Virus record (IMG/VR): IMGVR_UViG_3300013093_000001
Span: 32,001 to 96,000 of that record
Length of the DNA: 64,000 nucleotides
Direction: 5' to 3' (one strand)
Source: a virus
Made by a program: the position numbers and the translations under genes. Shown in pieces: positions 21 to 60,686 of this stretch (position 1 is its first letter; each line of letters begins with the position of its first letter). The notes beneath the pieces are model-generated. The model saw only the letters and a program-made list of their open reading frames with translations, searched no databases and was not told where the DNA came from.

Positions 21-932
21 ATGAACGAAATTAGAGAATACAACGAACCGGTCCTGGACAGCCTGGGACCGCCAGATGATGTGTTTATTACACAGCCGAC
101 AACCGGCGCATTGCAGCGCATGGAGGCAGAAGCACGAGCAATGAAGACGGCGTACACCATCGCCAGCAGTTTAAGTAAGACTGAGATGGTACCGGAGGCA
201 TACCAGGCCGGTAAGCATGGTGAAAGCGCCGCCTACAACCTCTGTGCAGCAATCATGTATGGCGCAGAATTGGGTTTGTCTGCCGTCCAGTCCGCGCAGA
301 ACATCTTCATTGTGCGGGGCAAACCGGCTATTTACAGCGTCACAATGGCAGCAGTCATTCGGCGCGCCGGTTTTGTCATTGAGGAGGTAGAAGCGACAGA
401 TGAAAAGGTTGTGTGGAAAGGACTGCGCGACGGCGCGTGGGCCTTTTCAGAATGGACAATCGGTCGCGCTAAACTCGCCGGTTACACATCAAATAAACTG
501 TATGAGACAAACCCCAAAGCAATGCTAAGGGCTAAATGTATTGCGGAATTGGCGCGTATAAAATTCCAAGACTGCATTACCGGTCTAGCGCATAGCATTG
601 AGGAATTGCAGTTGGAAAACGTCACGGTACAGCGCGTAGTCAAACCGGCCAATGTCGTAAGAGGCGCGGCGGCGTTACGGCAAGCGGCTGCCGCATCCCA
701 AGCGCCGGAACAACCGGTTGAGGAGCCAGAGGTGACGCCTGAGCCGGTAGAGCAGTGGATGATTTCCAAAATGCAAGTCGACAAGATTAGGAAACTGTAT
801 CTACAAAAAGGCATAAAAGGTCAGGGTGTCATGGACGATGTTGCTGAGTTCCTACAGTTGGATTCTCCGCTCAAAGACCTCAATGACCTGTCCTTGGAGG
901 ACGGGGACGCGGTCCTGGCTTACCTGTCGTGA
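21..932 (+). CDS. RecT-like ssDNA-annealing protein
   Basis: AAIMYGAELGLS..QSAQNIFIVRGKP and WTIGRAKLAGY..NP.AMLRAK motifs typical of actinophage RecT-like proteins; SD GGAAAGG upstream. Confidence 0.7.
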   Translation: MNEIREYNEPVLDSLGPPDDVFITQPTTGALQRMEAEARAMKTAYTIASSLSKTEMVPEAYQAGKHGESAAYNLCAAIMYGAELGLSAVQSAQNIFIVRGKPAIYSVTMAAVIRRAGFVIEEVEATDEKVVWKGLRDGAWAFSEWTIGRAKLAGYTSNKLYETNPKAMLRAKCIAELARIKFQDCITGLAHSIEELQLENVTVQRVVKPANVVRGAAALRQAAAASQAPEQPVEEPEVTPEPVEQWMISKMQVDKIRKLYLQKGIKGQGVMDDVAEFLQLDSPLKDLNDLSLEDGDAVLAYLS

Positions 933-4120: not shown

Positions 4121-4444
4121 ATGCTACATGAATCCTGGTCAACAATACCTGGGTATGAGGGCCAGTACGAGATTTCCGACTGGGGCCGCTGCCGATCAAT
4201 CGACCGGGTCGTCAAAGGACGTGACGGCTCAACCCGGTGGATTCAAGGTAAGATCATCAAACCTCATGCGCGGCGTGACGGCGTCATCGTCGTAAACCTG
4301 TGGCGGGAGAGCAAATACCGACAGAAGCAACTGCGCCGACTGGTACTTGAGGTCTTTGACCAGCCGCAACCAGCCGGTCAGGATGCGCGTAACTTAGACG
4401 GAGATCCTCACAATAACCGCCGCGACAACCTCACATGGTCGTAG
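4121..4444 (+). CDS. NUMOD4-HNH protein (HNH possibly degenerate)
   Basis: ESWSTIPGYEGQYEISDWGRCRS NUMOD4 motif; RNLDGDPHNNRRDNLTW HNH-like motif lacking the usual first His. Confidence 0.8.
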   Translation: MLHESWSTIPGYEGQYEISDWGRCRSIDRVVKGRDGSTRWIQGKIIKPHARRDGVIVVNLWRESKYRQKQLRRLVLEVFDQPQPAGQDARNLDGDPHNNRRDNLTWS

Positions 4445-4934
4445 TCGGAGAATACTGCAACCGCCACTCGTACAGGTCTTTCTTGTGGGCATCTGCGCGT
4501 AAAATCTCGTCAATAAGTTTGATGACCTCGTCGGATGTTTTGCAGGTGAAAAACAACTCATCAGCTTCACTCCAACCTAGACCGAGAATTTCAGTCGCGT
4601 AGTCCTTGACATTACGCACTGATTTATTAGGCAGGACGCAATAGTCGGTTACGATACTGCCGTCCACGCGCAGATTTAAAAGCTCCTCCTTAAAAGCTAA
4701 TTGGGCACCAGAGTTGACGACGGTCCAGCCTGCTGCACATGCGGTTGTCGGACAGGATGCCGTCAACCACTTGACTGGCTCGCCGTAATAAGTTCCCGAC
4801 TCAATTTCATCGGCATTGTCCATGTCATCGCGGGACAATTTACCCCAACTGGCCTGGTCATGCGTACCTGCTTTCGCTGCGGCAACAATTGTTGCCCGCA
4901 ACTTCTTCAAGGCCGGAATGTTGTAGTCAGCCAT
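4431..4934 (-). CDS. Hypothetical protein
   Basis: HDQ..W, CPTTACAAGW and EADELF motifs common in actinophages; SD AAAGGAAG and own promoter. Confidence 0.65.
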   Translation of the reverse strand: MADYNIPALKKLRATIVAAAKAGTHDQASWGKLSRDDMDNADEIESGTYYGEPVKWLTASCPTTACAAGWTVVNSGAQLAFKEELLNLRVDGSIVTDYCVLPNKSVRNVKDYATEILGLGWSEADELFFTCKTSDEVIKLIDEILRADAHKKDLYEWRLQYSPTTTM

Positions 4935-4980
4935 TTGCTTCCTTTCTATTTACGCGGCTGCCGTTTGCCGCCGCATACCA

Positions 4981-5009
4981 ATTATGACCGTCCCTGCTGT
5001 TAATCGCAA
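4981..5009 (-). promoter_or_regulatory. SigA-like promoter TTGCGA-N17-CATAAT
   Basis: One of a family of similarly spaced promoters, each followed by a GGCAAA-containing hairpin. Confidence 0.6.
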
Positions 5010-6263: not shown

Positions 6264-6773
6264 TCATTGCGCCATGTCCAATGGTCCGTATGCGTTGTAG
6301 GGCAGGTCTTGGACAGTCAAAACTTCCTCCCACCGGTACCGGACACCGTCCGGTGTGACAGCCTCATGCGGTCCGTCATGCTCATAAACCCTGTCACCGC
6401 AACCACATGTCAAAGACTCAAAAAACACGCTAATAAAGCAGCAGACACCATCAGGGTGTACCGCTCCGCAGTCGCGGGTAGCCAACGCCACCCCATCACC
6501 ACCGTGGGTAACCAGCGCCGCAGTTTCCTGCAACGCCACAATCACAGGGTCCACAACAACCGGTTCGACCGGCTGCTCCGGCTCATGCTTTTTTAACGTC
6601 GCCGGTCGCCGGGCCGGGTCTGTGTGAGGTACCCGTATAGTCCACGCATCTACGTGGACCGCCTGGTGCATAACAAACCCACGTCCAGCTAACTCGTCAC
6701 CTACAGCTTGGAAGCTGTTGGCTCTAATGCGCGTCCTGCCATAAACAGCCTCAAAGGCATGTTTGTCGTCCAT
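6264..6773 (-). CDS. Hypothetical protein
   Basis: SD GGAG upstream, promoter upstream, coherent ORF. Confidence 0.5.
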   Translation of the reverse strand: MDDKHAFEAVYGRTRIRANSFQAVGDELAGRGFVMHQAVHVDAWTIRVPHTDPARRPATLKKHEPEQPVEPVVVDPVIVALQETAALVTHGGDGVALATRDCGAVHPDGVCCFISVFFESLTCGCGDRVYEHDGPHEAVTPDGVRYRWEEVLTVQDLPYNAYGPLDMAQ

Positions 6774-6826
6774 TACCTACTCCCTGATCTACTCCCTGTC
6801 GGCTGCCGTTTTGCCGCCGTACCACC

Positions 6827-6856
6827 ATTATGGCCGACACCCCCAGCCACTCACAA
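6827..6856 (-). promoter_or_regulatory. SigA-like promoter TTGTGA-N18-CATAAT
   Basis: Same promoter family; followed by CGGCGGCAAAACGGCAGCCG. Confidence 0.55.
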
Positions 6857-9673: not shown

Positions 9674-10020
9674 CTAAACCGCCGCCCCCACCTTAAGCTG
9701 GAACAACGAGAATTTAGGGTTAGAAACCAGCGGCAGGTGATCCGCACACGTCGCGTATGTGTTGGCAACAGTGATTGCAGGGATGCGTGAGCCGGTCCTG
9801 ACAAAACACACAGCACAAGCGATGTAGTTGTCTGCGACAGCACAGGTCATGTAATTTTCTGCGGCGGTTTTCTTCACCCCGACAGTATGACACCTTTTAA
9901 CGCGACAAGATGCGCCGCTGGCAGTGTGTCCAATACACACGCCAACCCGGTAGCGAAGCCGGTGGACCGGGGTTACCCTGTTGTTATACGGCAAACCGCC
10001 GTGGTCGGAAAGGGGTAACA

Positions 10021-10392
10021 ATGAACCAAAATACTGCGTCAGTAGGTGGTGGCCTGCGGCAAGCGAGAAAACAGCAGGCCGCTAAGAGGACACCAGCCAA
10101 GGTCACGCAACTGCGTACCGACACAGATCAGGCGACAAGCCGCAATGCAGCAAAGCCGCAAAGCAGCAAACGAGCAACCCTGAAGTGGACCTTGTCCGGT
10201 GACGCGAAGGGTCGCAAGCAGGTTCCGGCGACCGCTGTCGCGCCAAACGGTGACCTCTACAGCATTGCCGGGTCCGACAAGCAATGGCGAGCCGATGTCA
10301 TTGATGTCAACAAGAACAAGTCAACCCTGGTGGTGGATGTGGCGTTCGACAAGGCTTACAAAGCCTGCGTGGAACACAGCAAGTCGCCGTAA
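10021..10392 (+). CDS. Basic hypothetical protein (paralog of 37313-37693)
   Basis: ATG 10021 with SD GAAAGGGG; promoter-like TAGCGA-N17-TACCCT at 9951-9979. Confidence 0.6.
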   Translation: MNQNTASVGGGLRQARKQQAAKRTPAKVTQLRTDTDQATSRNAAKPQSSKRATLKWTLSGDAKGRKQVPATAVAPNGDLYSIAGSDKQWRADVIDVNKNKSTLVVDVAFDKAYKACVEHSKSP

Positions 10393-10763: not shown

Positions 10764-11477
10764 TCAGGTAATTATTCGGGTGTAACCGTTCCAAGCATCT
10801 AAAATATCGCGACAGAAATCCTCTGACCTCCACGCTGGCGGCCCCTCCTCAATCTCTTGGACATAATGCCGTATAGCTGCTCGTCCATCAAAGCCAACGT
10901 CTACGCCCCACACCGTGAAGGCTGCCCACTTGCGGCCACAAGGGGGGCATTTGCCGCAAGCCCTGCCCCTGACCGGCTCATAACAGGAAAACGTGTCTTT
11001 GACCATGCGCTTACCATCAAACCCCCTGGTCAAACATTCTCCGACCAAAGCGGCCTTCGTCAATCTATACACCGGCAACTCAACCTTGACATTTCTCCCG
11101 TCAGGTAACCACCGCTGGACGGCGAATAAATACTCTGTCAGGTTGTTCAACCTGCTGACGAACTCCAAATCCTTGTCGTGGCCGGTACTGCTGTCAACGG
11201 ACCCCATCTGAATCCTGTCACCGTAGTTGGCGGCTACGAGCGCCAATATAGCGTTGCGACCGGGGATGACTTTGGAGTCCTGCAATTCATAATTCCCCAA
11301 TTGGCGCAGGTCAGCTACTTCTAACCGGCCAGTAAATCCAGGTGGCTTCTTAAGCCGACGATACTCCTGCTCCCCGTATCGCCCCCCCATGCGGCAGTAG
11401 AGCAACACGTCAGGCTTTGTCAACAGACTCATGCAATAACTGTCAACCCCACCACTGTAGAGCGCTACAACGGTCAC
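10764..11477 (-). CDS. QueC-like PP-loop ATPase (divergent paralog)
   Basis: SGGVDS, IPGRN and SCY..CGKCPPC zinc motif. Confidence 0.8.
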   Translation of the reverse strand: MTVVALYSGGVDSYCMSLLTKPDVLLYCRMGGRYGEQEYRRLKKPPGFTGRLEVADLRQLGNYELQDSKVIPGRNAILALVAANYGDRIQMGSVDSSTGHDKDLEFVSRLNNLTEYLFAVQRWLPDGRNVKVELPVYRLTKAALVGECLTRGFDGKRMVKDTFSCYEPVRGRACGKCPPCGRKWAAFTVWGVDVGFDGRAAIRHYVQEIEEGPPAWRSEDFCRDILDAWNGYTRIIT

Positions 11478-11614
11478 GGCGACATTCTCTGACTGCTGAC
11501 AGCTTTGAGGGAAGCGTTATCGTTTAAGGCTGCTTCTAACTTAGCCTCAGCCCGCAAACACCTTTGTCGCCACTCGTCTTTTTCTCGTTGCAATTCACAG
11601 TCCATGTCCATGTG

Positions 11615-12235
11615 TCAGCATTCTAGTCCAGCCTCTCGCCGGGACAGGCAAGCACCGCAGTTATTACACGGTCGTTGTTCGCCACGGTAACAGGACCACG
11701 TCAAACCCAGCGGAACATCAGACCAACGTCCCAGCTCAACGATTTGCCGCTTATTGAGATTGATGAGGGGAGCAGATACCTTAACCCCATACGCGGAACG
11801 TCCGGCAGCGTTGAGGAATGCTATAAATTCGGGACGACAATCAGGGTATCCGGCAGCATCGTCGCGGTTACACCCCAATACCACCTCATCGCAGTTACAC
11901 ACGCTGGCGCGAGCTAAAGCTATAGATATAAGTAGCAGGTTGCGTCCCGGTACGAATGTTGCGTCCACTGTCTCAGCGTGCTTGACAGGGATTATGCCCT
12001 GTCCTGTTAAGGCAGATGGTAGCGTCATCGGCAAGGTGACAACTTCATGGACCACGCCGTAGTAATCCGCAATAGCGGCTGCCGCTTCCAGCTCCTTGAC
12101 ATGATTCTGCCCGTAATTGACTGAAAGCGCTAGGTGGACGTTTTTCCTTGCCACTGTCAGATCAAGCGCAACTGTGGAATCGATGCCACCTGATAGCAGT
12201 ACAACCGCTGCGTCAGCCCCTGAAAAGTGGCTCAC
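11615..12235 (-). CDS. queC: 7-cyano-7-deazaguanine synthase QueC
   Basis: LLSGGIDS, YGQNH..E, FVPGRN, YPDCRPEF and TWSCY..CNNCGAC..R. Confidence 0.9.
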   Translation of the reverse strand: MSHFSGADAAVVLLSGGIDSTVALDLTVARKNVHLALSVNYGQNHVKELEAAAAIADYYGVVHEVVTLPMTLPSALTGQGIIPVKHAETVDATFVPGRNLLLISIALARASVCNCDEVVLGCNRDDAAGYPDCRPEFIAFLNAAGRSAYGVKVSAPLINLNKRQIVELGRWSDVPLGLTWSCYRGEQRPCNNCGACLSRREAGLEC

Positions 12236-14036: not shown

Positions 14037-14084
14037 AACTAACTCCTACCTGTCGTCAGCGACCCTTTGCCGCCGTACACCACT

Positions 14085-14113
14085 ATTTTAGCTTGCCGGG
14101 TGTTGGTTCACCA
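14085..14113 (-). promoter_or_regulatory. Promoter TGGTGA-N17-TAAAAT
   Basis: Same hexamers and spacing as upstream of ku; followed by hairpin CGGCGGC-AAAGG-GTCGCTG. Confidence 0.55.
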
Positions 14114-22668: not shown

Positions 22669-23870
22669 CTTTCCTCCTGTCGGGTCTGACCTCGTGTCAG
22701 ACCTCGTGTCGCGGCAAGGTAGTGAGCCTTGCCGGGACGAACTTTACGCTGGCGTGTCTGGGCCAAACATAGAGCGCAAGTAATTGAGCTCTTCTTTTTT
22801 GAGCTCACTGACATAGCGCAACTCGCCGCAGTGTTCGCAACTATGCGGGTGGTCATTGCCACCGTCGCATGAGCCACACACCCAATCGTCATACGTCAAT
22901 CTACTGCTACCTGCCTCTCTTGGTCACATTGAACTTGCCAGCCTTCAAGCGGTCTACTAATTCTCCCAATGCCGCCTCAAAACCGTCCGCGAAGGCGCTC
23001 GCTTCGTTTTGGTCCAGGTTTTTTCGTCTTTGCACAGCCACATGGGAGAGTGTTCCAGTTGGTCACGGACCCCGGCGACTGCTTCTTGACACCACTCCTC
23101 AACCGCGTGCTCGTCAAACTCCATTGTTGCCTTCCTATAAATTGGTCCTGGCCTGTGCCAATACTCGCGTCCCGGTAAGGTAATAAGCCTTACCGGGACT
23201 GTACTAATAATTAGTACGCTTCACCACACCGGCAACCACAGTTACGACGTTATCGGTTCTCCGCGTTGTTCGCCGCGTGCATTGTCCCAGGTATACATCA
23301 TGACATCGAGTGCATTAATGAACCTGACGTACATCTCCGATCCTGTCGGAAGGTAGCGCGGTATAGTTGCGCGTTGATCCCGACCGGTTACGGTTTCCGT
23401 CAAATGCACGTCCACTTGTATGCCGTCGTAGTCAATGCTGACCCTGATCGTCACGACCTAGACTCCCGCTGCATTATACGAATTTCGTCACGGATAACTG
23501 GGTGCCAAAAACTGTTAATTTCCGTTCCTGGTGTCCAATTTTGACGTGCCCACGACCGAAATTCTGCTTCTTCCTCCGGGGTCAAGTCACGGAAAATGCT
23601 CTCAAACTGACCCGACTTGCTGTTGCGGATCATTAAATTCCCCTCCGCATAGTCAAAACATGCGCTGCATGAGCTAAATTAATCCAAGCGTCAGCAAGTT
23701 GTATCTGACAATTGACTGTCAGTCTCTGACCTAGCGGACCATTCTCCACCGCAGTGAGTATTTTTTCTGCTTTCCGCAGGTACTCAACGGTTTCCATTCC
23801 TCCTCCAATCACCTTGGCCGGTTGCCAAGGACAGCGCCTGGGCGGGGCACTGAACCCCACCCAGGCTTCC

Positions 23871-25878: not shown

Positions 25879-26736
25879 CTAGCTGACCTTCCTGGTCGGC
25901 GCTGCTCGCTTAGCTGGCGCTTTCTTAGGCGCAGCCTTCTTAGCTGGTGTCTTACCAGCCGGATGCCGCTTGACGGACGCTTCCAGCTGCGCCATCAAGT
26001 CGGACACGTCGTCGTCGCGCTGGTCCAGATCAACGACGCTGGTCAACACGCCACCCTTAGCTTTCGTGTCAATCAACGCCGCGACCTGCGCGGTGTAGGT
26101 GTCAACGAAGTTGGCGGGACTAAAGTCCTCAATCATGCTGTCAACGACTGCGTGCGCCATTTCCAGCATTTTGGGTGACTCAATGGTCCCGTTTAAATGC
26201 TGCAAACCATTAGCGTCACGGATTTCGTCCAGCCAAATCAGGGTGTGCATGACCAACACGTTGCCAAGGACGCGGATGACAGCCATTTGCTGTCGTGTTC
26301 GCAACACAAACTTTGCGACCGCAACAACATCTGACTCCACCATGACCCGACGCAACAGCGCGTAACCTTGAGAGCTGTTGTCTGTGGGTTCCAAAAAGTA
26401 ACTGGACTCCCACATAATCGGGTCAATCTCGTCACTGTGACAAAACTGGACCACCTCAATGGCCGACAACTTATTGGCTTCCTGCAACTGCGCCAGGTCG
26501 TCATCGGTAATAACGACAATCTTGTCGTCATCAACCAGCTTGCCTTTAATGACTTCGTCAGACCGTGGGTTGACGCCACACTTCTTACACACGCGGGGCT
26601 GACCAATCGCACCCTCGCAACCTGCATGGAACAGGTTAAACGAGATGTCATGGCTGTCCGTTGCCTTGTAGAGTTTGACACCCACATTCACTAAACCGAA
26701 GTTCAGTGACGTGTTTTTCACTGATCTCATACCCAT
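25879..26736 (-). CDS. ku: Ku-like DNA end-binding protein
   Basis: LNFGLVNVGVKLYKAT, YFLEP..YALLR and DLMAQLEASV, plus a Lys/Ala-rich tail. Confidence 0.92.
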   Translation of the reverse strand: MGMRSVKNTSLNFGLVNVGVKLYKATDSHDISFNLFHAGCEGAIGQPRVCKKCGVNPRSDEVIKGKLVDDDKIVVITDDDLAQLQEANKLSAIEVVQFCHSDEIDPIMWESSYFLEPTDNSSQGYALLRRVMVESDVVAVAKFVLRTRQQMAVIRVLGNVLVMHTLIWLDEIRDANGLQHLNGTIESPKMLEMAHAVVDSMIEDFSPANFVDTYTAQVAALIDTKAKGGVLTSVVDLDQRDDDVSDLMAQLEASVKRHPAGKTPAKKAAPKKAPAKRAAPTRKVS

Positions 26737-26776
26737 GTTTTCCTCCTCCACGGCGACCCTTTGCCACCGCTTATTT

Positions 26777-26805
26777 ATTTTAGCCAGACAACTGGCTACT
26801 CACCA
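26777..26805 (-). promoter_or_regulatory. Promoter TGGTGA-N17-TAAAAT upstream of ku
   Basis: Followed by hairpin GCGGTGGC-AAAGG-GTCGCCGT and SD GGAGGAGG. Confidence 0.6.
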
Positions 26806-27135
26806 CCCGGTGGTGGCGAAATCTATGACCCCTCCAGGTAAAATCTCCTCAATACAGGGGAGGTGTAACGACCCGTCAGGTTCGCTACACCCCCTCCCTA
26901 CTCAGGGTGGTAAATGCCGTGCATTTCGTCTAGGCATTTGTCGCAGTGCTTGACGTAAGACGGCTTTCCGTCAACTAGCCAAAACTCTGTACCATAAATC
27001 TGGTTTGGCAATATCTGCCTCACGCATGTACTACAGGCATGGCTCTTCCTTGCTCGGCGGTACCGGGTCTCACCTAGCTGTAATTCATCAATCCAGTCAA
27101 CTTCTTCTGGATCATCCCTGTAGCCAGCGTAGATG

Positions 27136-30740: not shown

Positions 30741-31271
30741 TCACGCCGCAAATGCGTCGTACCACACCTTCCGCTTGTCACCACAGCAAGGGCCATAAAA
30801 CCACCCACGCCTATTAACTCTAAGCCGGTGCGCTGTCACGTTACCGTGACAGTAGAAGCAATGCGGGACCAGCTTACCGTCAGCTATCGTAAACTCTAGC
30901 TGCTGCCTCGGCTTATTGTTCCAGCCAACAAAGAACCTAAAAATTCTCAGGTGACTGGTATGACGCATCAAATGCAATGACCTTGCTAGCCTCGCTAACC
31001 GCAGCAGGGCTAAACCACCACCTGCCACGGGCAGTAACGCTGCCACAATGACACAAGCATCAAACACGTTCCAAAAAGACCGGAAGAAAAGCCTGGTAAA
31101 CGCGACACGAAGAGCCAGTTCACACGCAAAGAACAGCAAAACAGCGTTGTCCAGCCGCTCAAGTAATTCAGCGTTCGTGTCATCTACAAGGCTCCACGCC
31201 ACCAGACCAAGGTTGGTTAGAATTGCGACCATCACTACCCGGTCTAGCGGGGAAGACCTGTTGTGCGACAT
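30741..31271 (-). CDS. Ion_trans-like voltage-sensor (S1-S4) protein without a pore domain
   Basis: FFACELALR (S2), WNVFD (S3) and LRLARLARSLHLMR (S4). Confidence 0.8.
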   Translation of the reverse strand: MSHNRSSPLDRVVMVAILTNLGLVAWSLVDDTNAELLERLDNAVLLFFACELALRVAFTRLFFRSFWNVFDACVIVAALLPVAGGGLALLRLARLARSLHLMRHTSHLRIFRFFVGWNNKPRQQLEFTIADGKLVPHCFYCHGNVTAHRLRVNRRGWFYGPCCGDKRKVWYDAFAA

Positions 31272-31327
31272 TTCTCATAAACCTCCTCCTAACATCCCCG
31301 ACCCTGTGTCGGGGAAATCTGTGTGGG

Positions 31328-31444
31328 GAGGCGGCGGCGCAGGTACTGCGCCCGAGCCATGTAACCGGGCAAGGCAATCCTTGCTTCCATTGCCACCAAA
31401 AATGAATGAAAACGGTGGGATGGTGAGTTTAACGCCGCCGCCTC
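31328..31444 (-). ncRNA. Putative structured three-way-junction RNA, copy A
   Basis: Closing stem, TTAAACTCA, stem, AAGCAAGGA, stem, TACCTG; covaries with copies B and C; strand inferred. Confidence 0.6.
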
Positions 31445-31477
31445 AAGCCTCAAAAAGTTTGTGTGGAAAGGTGGTGG

Positions 31478-31598
31478 GGGGGCGGCGGCGCAGGTACTAC
31501 ACGCCCCGTAGTAAAAGGGCGCTTATTGGTAGTCCTTACTTTCCAATTTCCCACCAGCAAGGAACGAGAAATTGGTTGAGCTTAACGCCGCCGCCTCC
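31478..31598 (-). ncRNA. Putative structured three-way-junction RNA, copy B
   Basis: TTAAGCTCA..AAAGTAAGGA..TACCTG core with different stems. Confidence 0.6.
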
Positions 31599-31601
31599 AG
31601 C

Positions 31602-36704: not shown

Positions 36705-36900
36705 AGGTGCGACGCAGGTACAGTACGCCAGAGGATAGCTGGCGGTCACTCGGGCCGCATCGCAACATGGCTATGCGCGACCTGAGTGGACTGTCCTTGC
36801 ATTCCCGCTCCAAAGGGAGCAATCTTACCGCCGAGAAATTGGGCACTCGGCCTCTGCGGCAAGCAAAAACCTTCGGGGGGTGAGTTTAACGTCGCTTCCT
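36705..36900 (-). ncRNA. Putative structured three-way-junction RNA, copy C (extended arms)
   Basis: GCGACG-TTAAACTCA..AATGCAAGGA-CAGT..ACTG-TACCTG-CGTCGC; fills a slot between two double-hairpin elements. Confidence 0.65.
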
Positions 36901-38330: not shown

Positions 38331-38650
38331 ACCCAACATCGCTGTTGGGGGTGGGGCGGTAGGGGTTCCCTACCCACCCCAGTTTGGAGGTTAGAGGAAA
38401 TCACTATTCATTAGACCTGTCGGTGCCACATGCGACCAGCTTCGCGCTGGCCGGGTTTGCACCCTAGCGCCTTGTGTTCACTAGCGGTGCCTCTACGTGC
38501 GCGACCGCTGCTTCACTTTTGCCACCATCGTCCAAGTGCGCGACGGCGGCCACAAAGCACGCAGGCGCAAGGCTGCTCAGCCAGGTTGCGTGGACACCAC
38601 AGATATAGGTGTCCCGTAAAACCCGACCGGCAACTTTGCGCCTAAAACAA
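38331..38650 (-). ncRNA. Putative large structured ncRNA (~320 nt), copy 1
   Basis: Diverged duplicate at 43350-43694 with indels and compensatory changes; no conserved ORF. Confidence 0.7.
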
Positions 38651-39623
38651 GTATACCCAGGGGCCTGAGTGTTGCCTACCCCTAAGCACGACTAATTCTT
38701 TCTAACCCAAACCTGCTGGCGGCTGCCGGAAGGCTTTACCTTCCCCAGCCAGCCTCGTACCCGGTGTGGCTTCGACACCATACCGGGCCTCCTTACTTGT
38801 GCGTCCAGTCCCGGTAAAGCACCGCGAACAGGGTGCAAGCCATAACAATCATGGCCTCAACAGCGGGTGACATCATTTCTCCCGCTGGCTTTTCAGTCCC
38901 AAGCGTTGACGCACCCAGGCCAGACCTGGCGTTTCAGCCGGGGGCACATAATCCTGTGCGGGTTTAATCCCCTGCCAGACGCTCAACCCCATGTTGGGGT
39001 TCATGTATAGCATTTCTATCCTCCTTCTAGGTCGGCCTCGTGCCAACCTCGTGTCCCGCGTGGGTTCGACCCCACGCGGGACCACCACCTACTAGGAATT
39101 CTCCCAATTCCGGTAGCTCTTGTCTCGGCGTAACGCTTTCGCGTTTCGCTTCTTGCGCTGGTCTTGGTGGATACCAGCAGCGCCGGATCGTCGCAATTCA
39201 AGACGGGCTCGCAGTTGCTCCTCGCAGGCGCTCAGGTACTTGTCATCCACCAGTTGCAGATGACGCTTCATTATCATTATTTCCTCCTGTACCGGCTGGC
39301 TCTTTGCCAGCCTCGTACCCCGGCAGGTTCTGACACCCACCGGGGCCTGGGCCTTTATGGTCCTGCTAGAGCAGCACCAAATCTTCAGGCCACGCCTCAT
39401 CTTCACCGCCTGTGTCGAACTGGCCTGGATCCCATTCCAGGACAATGCCAATTCCGTTGGGGCCGTCCACCACCTCAACAACAGTTCCAATCATGGTAGG
39501 TGCACCGCAAGAGCGGACACGATCTCCCGGTTTGAACTTTTTACTCATTCCTCCTCCACTCTGGTCGGCCTCGTACCGACCTCGTACCCGGTATGGCTTC
39601 GACACCATACCGGGCCTCGTCAC

Positions 39624-43349: not shown

Positions 43350-43694
43350 ACCCAACATCGCTGTTGGGGCGGGGGTGGGCGGGGGCTCCCCACCCACCCC
43401 CTGTTTGGAGGTTAGAGGAAATCACTATGTATCAAACCTGTCGGTGCTACATGCGACCGGCTCTTGCCAGTCGGGTTTGCGCCCTAGCTCGTCGTGTCCA
43501 CTAGCAAGGCCTCTAACCGCGCACCTGCTGCTTCACTTTTGCCGACATCGCCCAAGTGCGCGACGGCGGCCACAACGAACAACGCAAAGAAGCCGGTCAA
43601 GGTAGCACCTACAGGGATGTACCCCTGTAGGTTGCGGACCCCTTAGATAAGGGTGTCCCTAAAACCCCGACCGGCAACTTTGCGCCTAAAACAA
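43350..43694 (-). ncRNA. Putative large structured ncRNA (~345 nt), copy 2
   Basis: Paralog of 38331-38650, located at the head of the leftward array. Confidence 0.7.
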
Positions 43695-44200
43695 ACGTAC
43701 CAACGGGCAGGAGCGACCACAACCCCCAATCTTTTCTGGTCACTCATTCTTTGGCGCGGGGTCGGCGCTGGCAGCGGCTGGTTGAGCGGCAATTCTTTCC
43801 GCTACCCAGGATGCTGGTTTCTTTCTCCACCAAGATTGAGTGACCGGAGCCGGTACCGGCTTCGGAGTGGCTGAGCGGAGCGACACTCGGAGCAAAAATC
43901 GGAGTGACATTCGGAGTAACTCTGATTGCGTGAGTTGATAGCGGCTCTGCACTAGGACTGCGCCCTAGCTTACTCGGCCCTGGCAGCCTCCGCGCTGTCC
44001 TCCGCGCTGTCCTCCAGCAGCCGCTCCCCAGCCACTCTGGGCAGTTGTGGCAGAAAAGATTGGGTGGCGTGAAGAGTAAACCCGTTGCACAGAACTATTG
44101 CCTGGTGTCAAGCTAGGTATTACGCTTGCCTTATGGCAAGCGTTACACGACACACCACCACGGTGGACAACGCAGCGCCAGGGACGGAGGTGACAACAAA

Positions 44201-55439: not shown

Positions 55440-56147
55440 TCATTGGTCGTCCGGCAATTCAATTATTTTGGTCACCGCGACCTTTTCCGGCAACACCACA
55501 ACCTCTTGCTCAGACCTGCCGTCAAAGTAGGCGATGATGTCTTTTTTGGCGACCGTACCTACTACAAGATTACGCGCCTCATCTTTGCCTGCCAAGCGCC
55601 GCGCAAAGAATTTAGCGACTACCGGATTAGTTGACCAGGAGAAGCCGTGTTGTATGCCGCGACCGGGGAAACCCCGATACACAGTGACCTCACCCGGCAG
55701 GTCGTGCTTAATGACGTTGCGTTCCTCCTGTTGCATCATTGCGTACCGGCAGGGTCGGTGACTACTCAACAGGTGTCGCCACTCCGACATGTTCTGCCGT
55801 ATGTTCTCGCTGTCTGTCCATATGTCACCTAGCAGGGACCAATACTTCTTGTCAGGCAAAATGTCCTCCACGGACATAAAAGCATCCAGCCGGTACGGGC
55901 GCTCATGGAGGAATATGAAACGGTCCCAACGCCTGGTATTCCGCGCCTTGTTGACAGCCAACTTCTTCTCTCGTAACTGTCGATTGACCAGCGCATTCAT
56001 GGCGTCAAAGTGGGGCACACTAAAAACAAGGGGGTGACGCAGCATAGGCCACCCCAAATCCTCGTTTTCCTCCAGGTAATACTCCAGTTCCGCGCTCAGC
56101 GGCTCCTGCTTAGACATCAAGTCCTGTAGTTCTGTCAGCAAATTCAC
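55440..56147 (-). CDS. Hypothetical protein with ADP-ribosyltransferase-like C-terminus
   Basis: VYRG, SWST and EQEVV (R-S-ExE pattern). Confidence 0.55.
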   Translation of the reverse strand: MNLLTELQDLMSKQEPLSAELEYYLEENEDLGWPMLRHPLVFSVPHFDAMNALVNRQLREKKLAVNKARNTRRWDRFIFLHERPYRLDAFMSVEDILPDKKYWSLLGDIWTDSENIRQNMSEWRHLLSSHRPCRYAMMQQEERNVIKHDLPGEVTVYRGFPGRGIQHGFSWSTNPVVAKFFARRLAGKDEARNLVVGTVAKKDIIAYFDGRSEQEVVVLPEKVAVTKIIELPDDQ

Positions 56148-56733
56148 CCAACTACCTCCGTCACAGGCGGCAGCGGTACTTCCGGCTTAAAAAAGTTGTG
56201 CATAGCCTCCGCTTCGCCGCAGTCGCTACAGATGTTGGTTTTGTTGTCGCAACGAGATGTTGCGGGGTAACTTTTAATCTCAGCGCCGCAACGTGGACAA
56301 ACAAGACCGGACCACCAGTCAGCCGTCATTAATCGGTCCCTTCTCAAGTCTGGCGACCGTTTGCCGCCATTACACAACTTTAGGCCACCACAGCTACCTT
56401 CACCAGTCGGTAGAGGTAACGAGGGATTCCAGTTTGCTGATGAATTCACGCAGGTCTTTGACATCAAACCATGTGAAGTCGCCGTTGTATCCCTGCCAAG
56501 GACCAATGACGACCTCATTGAGTCCGGTGTCAATCCGCATGTCTGGTACTGTACTGTCGCTCATTTGTCACACGGCGCAATGATCAGACCTGGGCAGGCA
56601 TCACCCTGTGGCGGGTCGGTCAACATCTTTATGTAAGCCGGTAGGAATGGCTCACCGGTCGGCTGTGGTGGCGCGGCAGCTTCCGTAGTTCCACACGCAG
56701 AAGTAACTAACACAACTGCAACCAGCAGTCGCC

Positions 56734-57210
56734 TCATGCCATTCCTCTTCCTGTTGTGATTCCTTCTTCCCAGTCACGCTGACGCGCCTTACTAGGTCCG
56801 TTCACTGCGACGTTTTCCTCTTGTGTTGTCACTAGGCCGTCTTGTATTAAGTACGGGAAGTCGTCTTGTAGCGCTTCCGGCAGTATCCACAAATGGTACT
56901 CGTTTGCTTGATCTGTCAGCTTAGACTCCGGTGGAAAAACCTCAATGCCAATTCGTTCGGGACCAGCTACCTCATTCTTAATTGCCTGCATGTGTCGCCA
57001 GTCGCGGATGGCTCTACGGTCATGCCGGTGGAAACTGACATGCAACGCGCCGAACCCTATGTCACGAACGAACACACTGTATAGATCGTTCCTGTAAGTA
57101 GCCTTCGGGACGGACATTCCAGCATTTATATAAAACTGCGCTGTCGTCTCGCATAGCTGAAGTGGTTGCCATCGGTGCCTCTGCTGCGGATTCCTCCTGC
57201 TTTTATTCAC
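56734..57210 (-). CDS. Conserved phage hypothetical protein
   Basis: DWRHMQAIKNEVAG.E...EVFPPES.L.DQANEYHLW; promoter TTGCGA-N17-AATAAT at 57258-57286. Confidence 0.7.
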   Translation of the reverse strand: MNKSRRNPQQRHRWQPLQLCETTAQFYINAGMSVPKATYRNDLYSVFVRDIGFGALHVSFHRHDRRAIRDWRHMQAIKNEVAGPERIGIEVFPPESKLTDQANEYHLWILPEALQDDFPYLIQDGLVTTQEENVAVNGPSKARQRDWEEGITTGRGMA

Positions 57211-57287
57211 TACCTCTCCTGCTCTTTGCTTGATTTGGCCTTTTGCCGCCAGCTACAATTATTTGTAAATTGTTTATTGCTCGCAAC

Positions 57288-57704
57288 CTACGACACCGCC
57301 TGTCGCATCAGGTCCGAGAACTCCATAAGGTGGCCGTACTTACGTTTCAGGTCACCGATTTCCCGCTGGAGCTCTTTCAACAGGATTTTCGTTAGGAACT
57401 CATCCTGTACTAGTTCCTCTGTCGGAATGTACCCAGTCCGTCTGTCGCCAGCTTCATGGAATGACTGGAAAGCCCTCACGTACCGACGCTCTCCAGACGG
57501 CGCATCGGGTATTTGAATGCGTACAGACCTCACCAACTCAGCAGCCTGTACCTTCCGGTAAGCCTCTCCCGCAACGGTGTCGTCCCATTCAAACCGATGG
57601 TGGAGGGGCGCGTCCAACGGACGCGCCTCCTCGACAACCAGTTCTGGCGTTAACTCACCGTGGTTACGGTAAATTGCCGTCAAAACATCACGCAGGTTTG
57701 ACAT
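57288..57704 (-). CDS. Conserved phage protein, partner of the RAMP-like gene
   Basis: LTPELVVEEAR...PLHHRFEWDD..A...YR..QA; start overlaps the stop of the RAMP-like gene. Confidence 0.75.
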   Translation of the reverse strand: MSNLRDVLTAIYRNHGELTPELVVEEARPLDAPLHHRFEWDDTVAGEAYRKVQAAELVRSVRIQIPDAPSGERRYVRAFQSFHEAGDRRTGYIPTEELVQDEFLTKILLKELQREIGDLKRKYGHLMEFSDLMRQAVS

Positions 57705-58366
57705 CAGCCTTCAATGCCAATCTCAACACTGCGGTCCACCTCGTACGTCCCGTACTCACCACGCTTTTCTGGCCGCCACTCACCGACCCCAATACCCATG
57801 CCGCCAGCGTCAATGAGAGACAGCACGCTGTTGCGGTCAATGGATGACTTGACGTAGGTCACCGTCAGTACCGTCGTCCATTCGGGGAACATTGGACGGT
57901 ATCGCAGGTCAGCCGACCGGGATGGACCGCCTAACCTGACCACGTCCTCACGCATCTCCGGTACACCCTTGATTTCGACCAACATTTGCGGGTCGGCCTT
58001 AGTCAAAACGCCGCGAAAAAACAGGAACTGCCGCAACGCCGTCATCGTGATGGACTTGTCGTAGAACCTGGCCGCGCTTGTCGTCGCCGCCTTAAACGCG
58101 GTGACAGGGAAGCCGTAAGCCTCTACCGGCTGGTCCGGTGTTCCCACGTTCGGCATGTCACTACGCAGGATGCGGTAAAAAGATGCCTCATACTCTGCTT
58201 TGGGGTCGCGGATTTCCTTGACCTTTTTCTTACCTTGCTGCGCCTCCAGCATCTGCCGCTTAGACTTCTCGCTAAAGTTGTGGACAATCAGCGGAGATGT
58301 ACCGATGATCGGTACATACAGCGTTTCTACGTCAATTCTGTCTAGCTTTACGTTATCTGTCGTCAC
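57704..58366 (-). CDS. Cas7/RAMP-like RNA-binding protein (putative Vipr-type effector)
   Basis: IIGTSPLIVH first strand, GFPVTAFKAA helix motif and C-terminal Gly-rich loop GIGVGEWRPEKRGEYGTYEV. Confidence 0.7.
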   Translation of the reverse strand: MTTDNVKLDRIDVETLYVPIIGTSPLIVHNFSEKSKRQMLEAQQGKKKVKEIRDPKAEYEASFYRILRSDMPNVGTPDQPVEAYGFPVTAFKAATTSAARFYDKSITMTALRQFLFFRGVLTKADPQMLVEIKGVPEMREDVVRLGGPSRSADLRYRPMFPEWTTVLTVTYVKSSIDRNSVLSLIDAGGMGIGVGEWRPEKRGEYGTYEVDRSVEIGIEG

Positions 58367-58375
58367 TACACTTAC

Positions 58376-58439
58376 CTCTCCTTATGGGTCAGCCCGTTGC
58401 CGACCTCGTACCCTGTCCAAGTTTGACCCTGACCAGGGC
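58376..58439 (-). repeat. Isolated copy of the double-hairpin element upstream of the RAMP-like gene
   Basis: GCCCTGGTCAGG-GTCAAA-CTTGGACAGGGT-ACGA-GGTCGGC-AACGG-GCTGACC followed by SD AAGGAGAGG. Confidence 0.75.
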
Positions 58440-58544
58440 TCGCGTGCCACGACGGGGTTCCTTATGCCACGCCTGCTGACCCGCATATATATATATACGG
58501 TAAATAAAACCGGCTTACTTCACCAGGCCAACTTGTCATGCCCA

Positions 58545-59152
58545 GCACTGCCTGCCGTGCTAAGCCCAGCCCAGCCGCACCAAACCCGACCTCGCCGTAC
58601 CGTACCTCGCCTGCCTCGCCGTGCCAGACCCGACCTCGCCATGCCAGACCTCACCGCGCCAAACCGTACCGCGCCCCGCCTGCCATGCCATGCCTTGCGA
58701 TGCCATGCCGTACCACGCCTCACCTTGCCTGCCTCGCTAGCCTCACCTTGCCTGCCTCGCCATACCATTCCTCGCCTCGCCTTGCCGCGCCTGCCTTGCC
58801 ACACCCTGCCTCGACACGCCAAGCAAAGCCCAGCCTCGCCTGCCATGACTTGCCTCAACGTGACATACCCGGCCTTGACCCGCCTGCCCTGCCTTGACTT
58901 GCCTCGACTTGCCTCAACCAGCCTCGACTGCCGCGCCACACCGCGCCAGACCGCGCCATCCACACCCAGCCGCTCCGTGCCTCGACTGCGTCGCCGCGCC
59001 ATGCCTGACCGGGACTGCCTCGCCATACCAGGCCGTGCCGTGCCATGCCAAACCGCGCCCTGCCCGGTCCCGCCATGCCTTGCCACGCCTTGACTGCCGT
59101 GACTTGACAAACCCCGCCGTGCCCAACCAAACCTGACCATGCCTGCCAGCCA
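58545..59152 (-). ncRNA. Segmented GGY-NN pentamer array (putative guide-RNA array)
   Basis: Over 100 pentamers with a near-constant GG(C/T) and a variable NN; 13 GGCAG(G/T)C-type delimiters give 12 segments of 23-79 nt. Confidence 0.75.
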
Positions 59153-59181
59153 GCTAGGTTGCCTTGTCGAACAATGCTCTG

Positions 59182-59223
59182 TATGGCAGTCCCGGCGACG
59201 GAGGTAGACACCGGGACCGCCAT
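59182..59223. terminator. Stem-loop between the DUF932 gene and the pentamer array
   Basis: TATGGCAGTCCCGG / CCGGGACCGCCATA inverted repeat. Confidence 0.45.
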
Positions 59224-59258
59224 ACCTTATTTTAGTTGTAGGTTGTACTGTTCACCAG

Positions 59259-60326: not shown

Positions 60327-60657
60327 GCGTTCCCTCTCTTTGTTGTTTTAGTCCCTTGTGGACTAAATTCTGTTAGTAGTCGGGTAAGGGTTCACCGCCG
60401 CAGGCGCAGCCGCTGCTATGCCATGCAGCCCAGGCATGGGCTTTGCCGGGTTTGCCGGGGTTGTTTTCGTCCTCGTACCACTCCATCAGGTGTCCAGCCC
60501 ACGACTGGTATTGGACGGTGGTGTCGGTGGTACCTTGGCGGTCGAATTCGATCTGCCGCTGGTCGTAGCAGTCGATTTCGCTTTGTTCGTATGCGCTGGG
60601 GTCGTAAGACATGTTTACCTCCTGTCCTGTCCGGCCATTTGCCAAACAGCTAAGGTA

Positions 60658-60686
60658 ATAGTATGGGTTTAGCTAGTTGCTCACAA
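60658..60686 (-). promoter_or_regulatory. Promoter TTGTGA-N17-TACTAT
   Basis: Same promoter family; nearest clear promoter upstream of the DUF932, array and RAMP block. Confidence 0.55.

Follow-up and report, generated by a model that had tools for sequence, protein, structure and literature searches.

Small stem-loops near the 5' end of a message act as stabilisers in the leaders of E. coli ompA, of gene 10 of phage T7 and of B. subtilis aprE and ermC. Between the early genes of T7, RNase III processing sites cut the long transcript into capped, stable units, and the nut/boxB sites of lambdoid phages as well as the put RNAs of HK022 form a small RNA hairpin, or a pair of them, just downstream of early promoters. 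At the level of the genome, T4-type phages carry the PeSL, a sequence-conserved DNA motif in which a terminator-like stem-loop adjoins a promoter and which mediates recombination (PMC2839356, PMC4122927). In mycobacteriophages, repeats just before start codons, some of them with an upstream inverted repeat, have been described as SAS/ESAS for Cluster K (PMC3203893) and as CR1-4 for Cluster M, where stem-loops precede CR3 and CR4 (PMC7953290).

In the phage genome analysed here, small stem-loops stand behind promoter-like sites and, as the second hairpin of a double-hairpin element, before the cistrons of a long gene array. By analogy, their closest functional counterparts would be the 5' stabiliser hairpins and the RNase III punctuation of T7, and the closest genomic ones the PeSL cassettes, SAS/ESAS and CR1-4. 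As in the ompA, T7 gene 10, aprE and ermC leaders, a small stem-loop lies a few nucleotides from the (here predicted) 5' end with a free ribosome site downstream, and pairing is kept more strictly than sequence; in contrast to these stabilisers, the phage hairpins have a conserved stem top and first loop base, and the same kind of hairpin also precedes about 44 internal cistrons. The elements resemble the RNase III sites of T7 as structured intercistronic signals in a long phage transcript, with the cleavage being predicted here, but here a single-stranded linker, in which one C is invariant, separates two hairpins, an arrangement that points to an RNase E-type cut rather than to a cut within a duplex. 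As with the PeSL, a combination of promoter and stem-loop recurs next to early genes that are small and variable; however, the stem lies 3' of the promoter, its sequence varies with compensatory changes and most copies have no promoter. The position just before start codons is common to SAS/ESAS and CR1-4, which in contrast are conserved in sequence, and in the accessible parts of their descriptions a link to promoters is not reported. The position just past a promoter recalls nut/boxB and put, whereas no boxA and no GNRA-like pentaloop were found here, the loop length is variable and 44 copies lie inside one transcription unit.

The phage genome and its probable host

The source record is a 113,905-bp virus from IMG/VR with direct terminal repeats and about 55% G+C. 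The window, i.e. the whole stretch of 64,000 nucleotides under analysis, comprises its bases 32001-96000, and coordinates refer to the window unless they are marked as genome positions. The genome contains a siphovirus-type gene set (terminase, head protease, major head, tail, lysis). Since the terminase shows 56% identity to those of the Mycobacterium phages Nadezda, Typha and Bipper, and since the phage Ku (gene 25879-26736, minus strand; PF02735, E 9e-40) shows 41-46% identity to chromosomal Ku of Mycobacterium and Mycolicibacter and 36% to Ku of Cluster J phages, the host is likely a member of the Mycobacteriaceae. No close relative was matched by megablast and blastn against 50,697 phage records, and a Ku-based locus search in IMG/VR yielded no related locus. 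The element patterns gave only single matches in IMG/VR, JGI metagenomes and GTDB genomes, one of them in a Streptomyces chromosome, and those inspected were without hairpin. ENA and Logan contigs with a near-identical Ku exist. Neither a tRNA nor a tmRNA was found in the phage.

Several other genes were observed. Ku and an ATP-dependent DNA ligase (phrog_114, genome 110666-111577, minus strand) are both phage-encoded and may be a complete end-joining pair brought by the phage. RecE-like and RecT-like genes are present (genome 31124-31999 and window 141-932). Two adjacent QueC-like genes (10764-12235, minus strand; PF06508, E 8e-55 and 3e-16) belong to the operon behind the promoter listed below as s3 and suggest, together with several glycosyl- and methyltransferases elsewhere in the genome, a DNA (7-deazaguanine) or surface modification module.

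Stem-loops behind promoter-like sites

The first-pass annotation had claimed six promoter-like sites with the boxes T(T/G)G(C/T)GA and -10 separated by a 17-18 nt spacer, each followed by a hairpin. All six were found at the claimed positions on the minus strand (s1 to s6), and a GGCAAA-containing stem-loop is present downstream of every one (6/6). Through a promoter-blind stem scan and an inventory of all GGCAAA occurrences the set grew to ten, the four new sites including three on the plus strand; two of the new ones, labelled s8 and s9, lie outside the window.

4981-5009, minus strand: promoter-like site s1, TTGCGA, 17 nt, CATAAT
4954-4974, minus strand: leader hairpin s1, one G/A mismatch in the stem, upstream of a 167-aa gene (4431-4934)
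6827-6856, minus strand: promoter-like site s2, TTGTGA, 18 nt, CATAAT
6800-6819, minus strand: leader hairpin s2, upstream of a 169-aa gene (6264-6773)
14085-14113, minus strand: promoter-like site s3, TGGTGA, 17 nt, TAAAAT
14057-14075, minus strand: leader hairpin s3, 7 bp with 2 G.U, at the head of the leftward operon with the two QueC-like genes
26777-26805, minus strand: promoter-like site s4, before ku, TGGTGA, 17 nt, TAAAAT
26750-26770, minus strand: leader hairpin s4, 8 bp with 3 G.U, loop AAAGG, SD directly after
57258-57286, minus strand: promoter-like site s5, TTGCGA, 17 nt, AATAAT
57236-57251, minus strand: leader hairpin s5, the weakest with 4 bp, upstream of a DUF7694 gene (56734-57210)
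60658-60686, minus strand: promoter-like site s6, TTGTGA, 17 nt, TACTAT
60627-60649, minus strand: leader hairpin s6, 9 bp with 2 U.G, upstream of a gene at 60373-60612
56377-56405, minus strand: additional promoter-like site s7, TGGTGA, 17 nt, TAAAGT
56351-56369, minus strand: leader hairpin s7, 7 bp, upstream of a gene at 56144-56329
9951-9979, plus strand: additional promoter-like site s10, TAGCGA, 17 nt, TACCCT
9987-10003, plus strand: leader hairpin s10, 6 bp, upstream of a gene at 10021-10392
Genome 23274-23294, plus strand: additional hairpin outside the window, behind an extended -10 (TGgTAGTGT), before an HTH protein
Genome 31084-31098, plus strand: additional hairpin outside the window, behind an extended -10 (TGgTAGGTT), before the RecE/RecT pair

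Among the six sites claimed at first, the -35 box occurs as TTGCGA, TTGTGA and TGGTGA and the -10 box as CATAAT, TAAAAT, AATAAT and TACTAT. TGGTGA deviates considerably from the usual -35 box; a generic sigma-70 scan showed no enrichment and flagged only s5 among the sites of this family, which departs from TTGACA. The composite pattern of -35, spacer, -10, 5-20 nt and GGCAAA was observed eight times, whereas 200 second-order Markov genomes yielded 0.04 on average and at most 1. The -35/-10 spacers and the flanks of the sites are unrelated in sequence; therefore, the sites are not recent duplicates, and the parts that have been kept are the functional boxes and the top of the hairpin.

The layout consists of -35, spacer, -10, 6-9 nt, a GGC-AAA(N)N-G(Y)C stem-loop, an SD and the start codon. 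The stem begins 6-9 nt past the -10 box in nine of the ten sites and 13 nt past it in s9, and the start codon follows 13-26 nt past the stem in all ten. For ku, the start codon is the ATG at 26736, which corrects the first-pass annotation. On both strands the hairpins always lie in the sense of the downstream gene, and the minimum free energy structure of every leader (RNAfold) is the stem-loop itself. In M. smegmatis, 79% of the promoters contain ANNNT at -13 to -6 and transcription starts mostly at G or A (PMC6448022). Placing the start 7 nt past the T of the -10 box, according to the M. smegmatis rule, results in a predicted +1 that precedes the stem by 0-3 nt in nine sites and by 7 nt in the remaining one; thus, the predicted leaders comprise approximately the hairpin and the SD and little else. 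This agrees with the proposal that the predicted transcript start of each promoter coincides with the hairpin site, in the order promoter, short gap, stem and SD.

In the ten leader stems, 55 pairs are of the Watson-Crick type and 12 are G.U, whereas A.C does not occur; this census is partly biased since the stems were delimited by programs accepting G.U. The comparison of sense and antisense folds is free of this bias, and all ten hairpins were more stable in the sense of the mRNA (mean ddG -4.2 kcal/mol), from which it follows that they are RNA structures. Since the three plus-strand sites show the same preference, strand composition is not its cause. The lower stems vary from site to site while pairing is maintained, with the 5' arm (GGCGGC) being better conserved and the 3' arm drifting via G.U. 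As structures of the transcript, the leader stem-loops are unlike the invariant 17-bp repeat of Cluster O phages (PMC4351075), which is a palindromic site for a protein.

Two exceptions were noted. A promoter at genome 28977-29006 (TGGTGA, 18 nt, TATAAT) precedes an HNH endonuclease gene and has no hairpin, and a family promoter at 59229-59257 (minus strand) has another type of hairpin behind it, of 18 bp (59181-59225), at the head of a GGY-NN tract. The HNH gene with its own near-consensus promoter (genome 28348-29006, minus strand, outside the window) looks like a recently acquired homing cassette. Separately, a GC-rich 14-bp stem-loop without a clear U-tract lies about 55 nt upstream of the ku promoter (26859-26894, minus strand) and may be the end of the upstream part of the array transcript.

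The intercistronic array and its linker

Double-hairpin elements, about 44 altogether, were found in the following places:

21713-43343, minus strand: array of about 43 intercistronic elements, each with a 12-bp hairpin 1, the linker (U/C)(A/G)CGAG, a 7-bp hairpin 2 and an SD
58368-58441, minus strand: the sole array-type double hairpin outside the array, directly upstream of vipr

Hairpin 1 shows compensatory changes in 10 of its 12 pairs and 48 G.U compared to 2 A.C. In the linker, the C is invariant and preceded by a purine in all 41 aligned elements (A in 32, G in 9), while GA follows in 35 of them. This C is single-stranded between two stable stems, and its distance to hairpin 2 amounts to 0-4 nt (3 nt in 27/41). 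No T-run was found after hairpin 1, which continues with UACGAG, or after the leader hairpins, which continue with the SD, so hairpin 1 is not an intrinsic terminator. A consistently placed -10-like ANNNT motif was not found in the hairpin-1 loop either. Mycobacterial RNase E cuts single-stranded RNA 5' of a C (RN↓CNU), preferably where a purine precedes the cut, and such sites are overrepresented in intergenic regions and 5' UTRs (PMC10641625, PMC6448022). As the invariant linker C follows a purine and is single-stranded, in line with this preference, cleavage is favoured over initiation as the probable origin of the 5' ends in the array. The linker corresponds to the motif in its R↓C core only, with A instead of U at +3, and since the host itself is inferred, the RNase E argument is an indirect one.

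Based on the first-pass annotation, the hairpin behind the promoters would be the same as hairpin 2, with the promoter standing where hairpin 1 would be. The second part was borne out, as both classes comprise a promoter or hairpin 1, 5-9 nt, a stem-loop and an SD. The identity of the hairpins stood only in part: the top of the stem and the geometry are common to both classes, whereas the lower stem and the loop differ. The common features are a GGC clamp, a purine-rich loop of 4-5 nt that begins with A, and G(Y)C, and the GGC together with the A-first loop is present in 33/33 array copies and 10/10 leader copies. The lower stem reads YY-GGC in the array compared to mostly GGCGGC behind promoters. 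AAA at the start of the loop was determined for all promoter-linked copies, including the 7/7 leader hairpins from a scan blind to loop positions 2-3, but only for 12/33 array copies, in which the loops of 4-6 nt vary in sequence past the first A. A covariance model built from the 33 array copies of hairpin 2 alone was used to search the whole genome (E≤10). It found further array copies outside the training set but recovered only three of the ten leader hairpins (s8 with 23.8 bits, s6 with 23.2 and s4 with 12.9), the other seven being below the threshold; only s6 and s8 fall into the score range of the array. Judged by these comparisons, the leader hairpin and hairpin 2 are best called variants of one design and not strictly one family.

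All intergenic hairpin-2-like stems except one follow a hairpin-1-type stem with linker or a promoter; the exception (31295-31315) has no recognisable promoter and no canonical hairpin 1. Before non-coding stretches (near 38750 and 43310), a different stem-loop follows directly after the linker. As further observations, two diverged copies of a stretch of about 350 nt (38331-38690 and 43350-43730, minus strand; blocks with 77-83% identity) without a conserved ORF lie inside the gene array, each preceded by hairpin 1, the linker and a long stem-loop (repeat families D14, D16, D17), with no Rfam match. Array slots without an obvious ORF contain the short repeated non-coding motifs GTACCTGCGCCGCCGCC and GCGGCGTTAA(A/G)CTCACC (31316-31600 and near 36880-36900, both minus strand).

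The double hairpin outside the array belongs to a separate neighbourhood with the following features:

57288-59257, minus strand: VIPR locus with vipr, probable vap, (NNGGY)n tract and family promoter
57704-58366, minus strand: vipr, 220 aa, profile match to SUSP1 Vipr (PDB 36pp, E 7.5e-13), a large family
57288-57704, minus strand: probable vap, 138 aa, phrog_15946, downstream of vipr
58550-59147, minus strand: (NNGGY)n tract of about 600 nt, matching the described vrRNA repeats
59229-59257, minus strand: promoter heading the VIPR repeat tract, TGGTGA, 17 nt, TAAAAT, of the same family as the leader-hairpin promoters

To judge by the profile and repeat matches, vipr, the (NNGGY)n tract and the 138-aa gene together are a VIPR locus. 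The VIPR system has been described in two preprints (10.64898/2026.04.26.720920 and.720927), the main text of which does not mention mycobacteria or actinobacteria.

A proposed protective 5' end and its alternatives

With moderate confidence, the leader stem-loop is taken to be a protective hairpin at the 5' terminus of the mRNA. While the co-location of promoter and stem-loop, the pairing in the sense of the RNA, the geometry and the invariant R-C linker are directly observed, we infer the transcription starts, the linker cleavage and the stabilising effect. Host RNA polymerase would start at the SigA-type promoters and produce mRNAs with a short hairpin at their very 5' end, so that the leader hairpins would be the promoter-linked counterpart of hairpin 2 in the double-hairpin elements. 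With its 5' end paired and a free ribosome site directly following, the message would be shielded from decay by RNase E or RNase J that depends on the 5' end. Within the array, an endonucleolytic cut at the invariant linker C would create an equivalent 5' end with at most 4 free nucleotides, so that the upstream message would end in hairpin 1 as its 3' cap and the downstream one would begin with hairpin 2 as its 5' cap. In M. smegmatis, mRNAs with a 5' UTR that is structured outside the ribosome site tend to have a longer half-life (PMC11532794). Points against the protective cap are the stem of only 4 bp in s5, the distance of 13 nt between -10 box and stem in s9 and the HNH promoter without hairpin.

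The main rival, although unlikely, is that the stem-loop serves as a docking site for a sequence-specific RNA-binding protein of phage or host, acting in translation control or in the marking of messages, i.e. by recognition and not by protection. Its rank rests on the clamp and the AAA loop, whose conservation exceeds what stability alone calls for; since a purely thermodynamic cap does not need the AAA loop, this loop hints at a sequence-specific partner. The constancy of GGC and the A-first loop in both classes, the AAA start in every promoter-linked loop compared to the array, and the better conservation of the 5' arm over the G.U-drifting 3' arm point in the same direction. Coat-protein operators and boxB-type sites are known hairpins of this recognition type. 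However, the array loops vary in length and in sequence past the first A, no conserved linear box such as boxA accompanies the stem, and no RNA-binding protein or RNase was recognised in about 70 scanned ORFs, which include the ORFs behind 8/10 sites. Antitermination in particular does not suit one copy per cistron; it is the worst-fitting role and unlikely, because the array repeats the hairpin before every cistron. A nut site of the lambda type was rejected on the grounds of A-first loops of 4-6 nt, no GNRA-like boxB loop and no conserved linear box except the SD. The boldest variant, which we consider a long shot, is a single GGC-clamped A-loop tag on every phage RNA 5' end, arising by initiation or by cleavage at the linker C of the 44 elements and read by a dedicated factor that selectively stabilises or translates phage messages during host shut-off; this would in effect be a viral 5' mark for bacterial mRNAs.

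Another explanation, which appears quite improbable, would be a role at the level of the DNA, either as a repressor operator overlapping +1 or as a PeSL-like recombination joint for promoter/gene cassettes. Operators classically occupy the segment between +1 and +20; like the PeSLs (PMC2839356, PMC4122927), the repeats border small genes of unknown function within a long array; and the HNH gene, likely a recent arrival, brings a promoter without hairpin. Against this, the stem sequences differ among copies while the pairing is kept, and the departures to G.U occur only in the sense of the RNA, whichever genome strand is concerned (12 compared to 0 in the leaders, 48 compared to 2 in hairpin 1). 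A dimeric binder would need identical half-sites in each copy, as in the 17-bp palindrome of Cluster O (PMC4351075).

It is very unlikely that the resemblance to hairpin 2 is incidental and that the leader hairpins are a promoter-leader family of their own, of common descent and without link to the array: a GGC clamp with an A-rich loop is a common build for a small stable hairpin in a GC-rich leader, the array-trained model misses 7/10 sites, and lower stems and loops form a distinct subclass, but neither spacers nor flanks show any relationship among the ten sites, so that conservation is selective, both classes keep the same place with respect to the SD and the preceding signal, the scores of s6 and s8 fall within the array range, and the hairpin-2-like intergenic stems other than 31295-31315 stand behind a hairpin-1-type stem with linker or a promoter. 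The G.U asymmetry and the shared placement are explained less well by either the DNA-level or the incidental reading than by a protective 5' hairpin.

Further candidates were tried and rejected. Among the approximately 70 scanned ORFs, beside which the genome holds many small ones, no phage RNA polymerase, RNase or RNA-binding regulator was recognised; the 813-aa ORF had no matches and the 782-aa ORF is a head protease fusion. A phage RNA polymerase with a hairpin-type promoter at hairpin 1 was rejected given no polymerase match in this set and a loop without consistently placed ANNNT. A dedicated Cas6-like RNase was also rejected: the RAMP-like 220-aa protein is the Vipr guide-RNA protein, and no link to the hairpins was found. 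An SD-like loop, with AAAGG pairing to the 16S 3' end, would fit only about 3/10 loops. Primase sites (GGGTC or GTGTC in the hairpin-1 loop) were considered but dropped, as the position of the elements follows the stop/SD/start boundaries exactly. A comparison with Rfam remained without match, both for the whole genome at the gathering score and for 21000-46500 at E≤0.5. No match was found for the Cluster K SAS with up to 2 mismatches or for the Cluster O palindrome, and none that was exact for the Cluster A stoperator.

Returning to the protective 5' hairpin, the repeats before start codons in mycobacteriophages (SAS/ESAS, CR1-4) have been without an assigned function for more than 10 years. 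The present genome offers a clean and testable case, in which a small hairpin stands behind promoters as well as behind a putative RNase E site, with explicit sequence rules (invariant R-C linker, 0-4 free nucleotides, GGC clamp). If not confirmed, the hairpin would be an ordinary leader structure. If the proposed function is true, the genome would show how a phage can divide a 21-kb polycistronic message into stable units in a host dominated by RNase E, and it would provide compact leader and insulator parts for mycobacterial expression.
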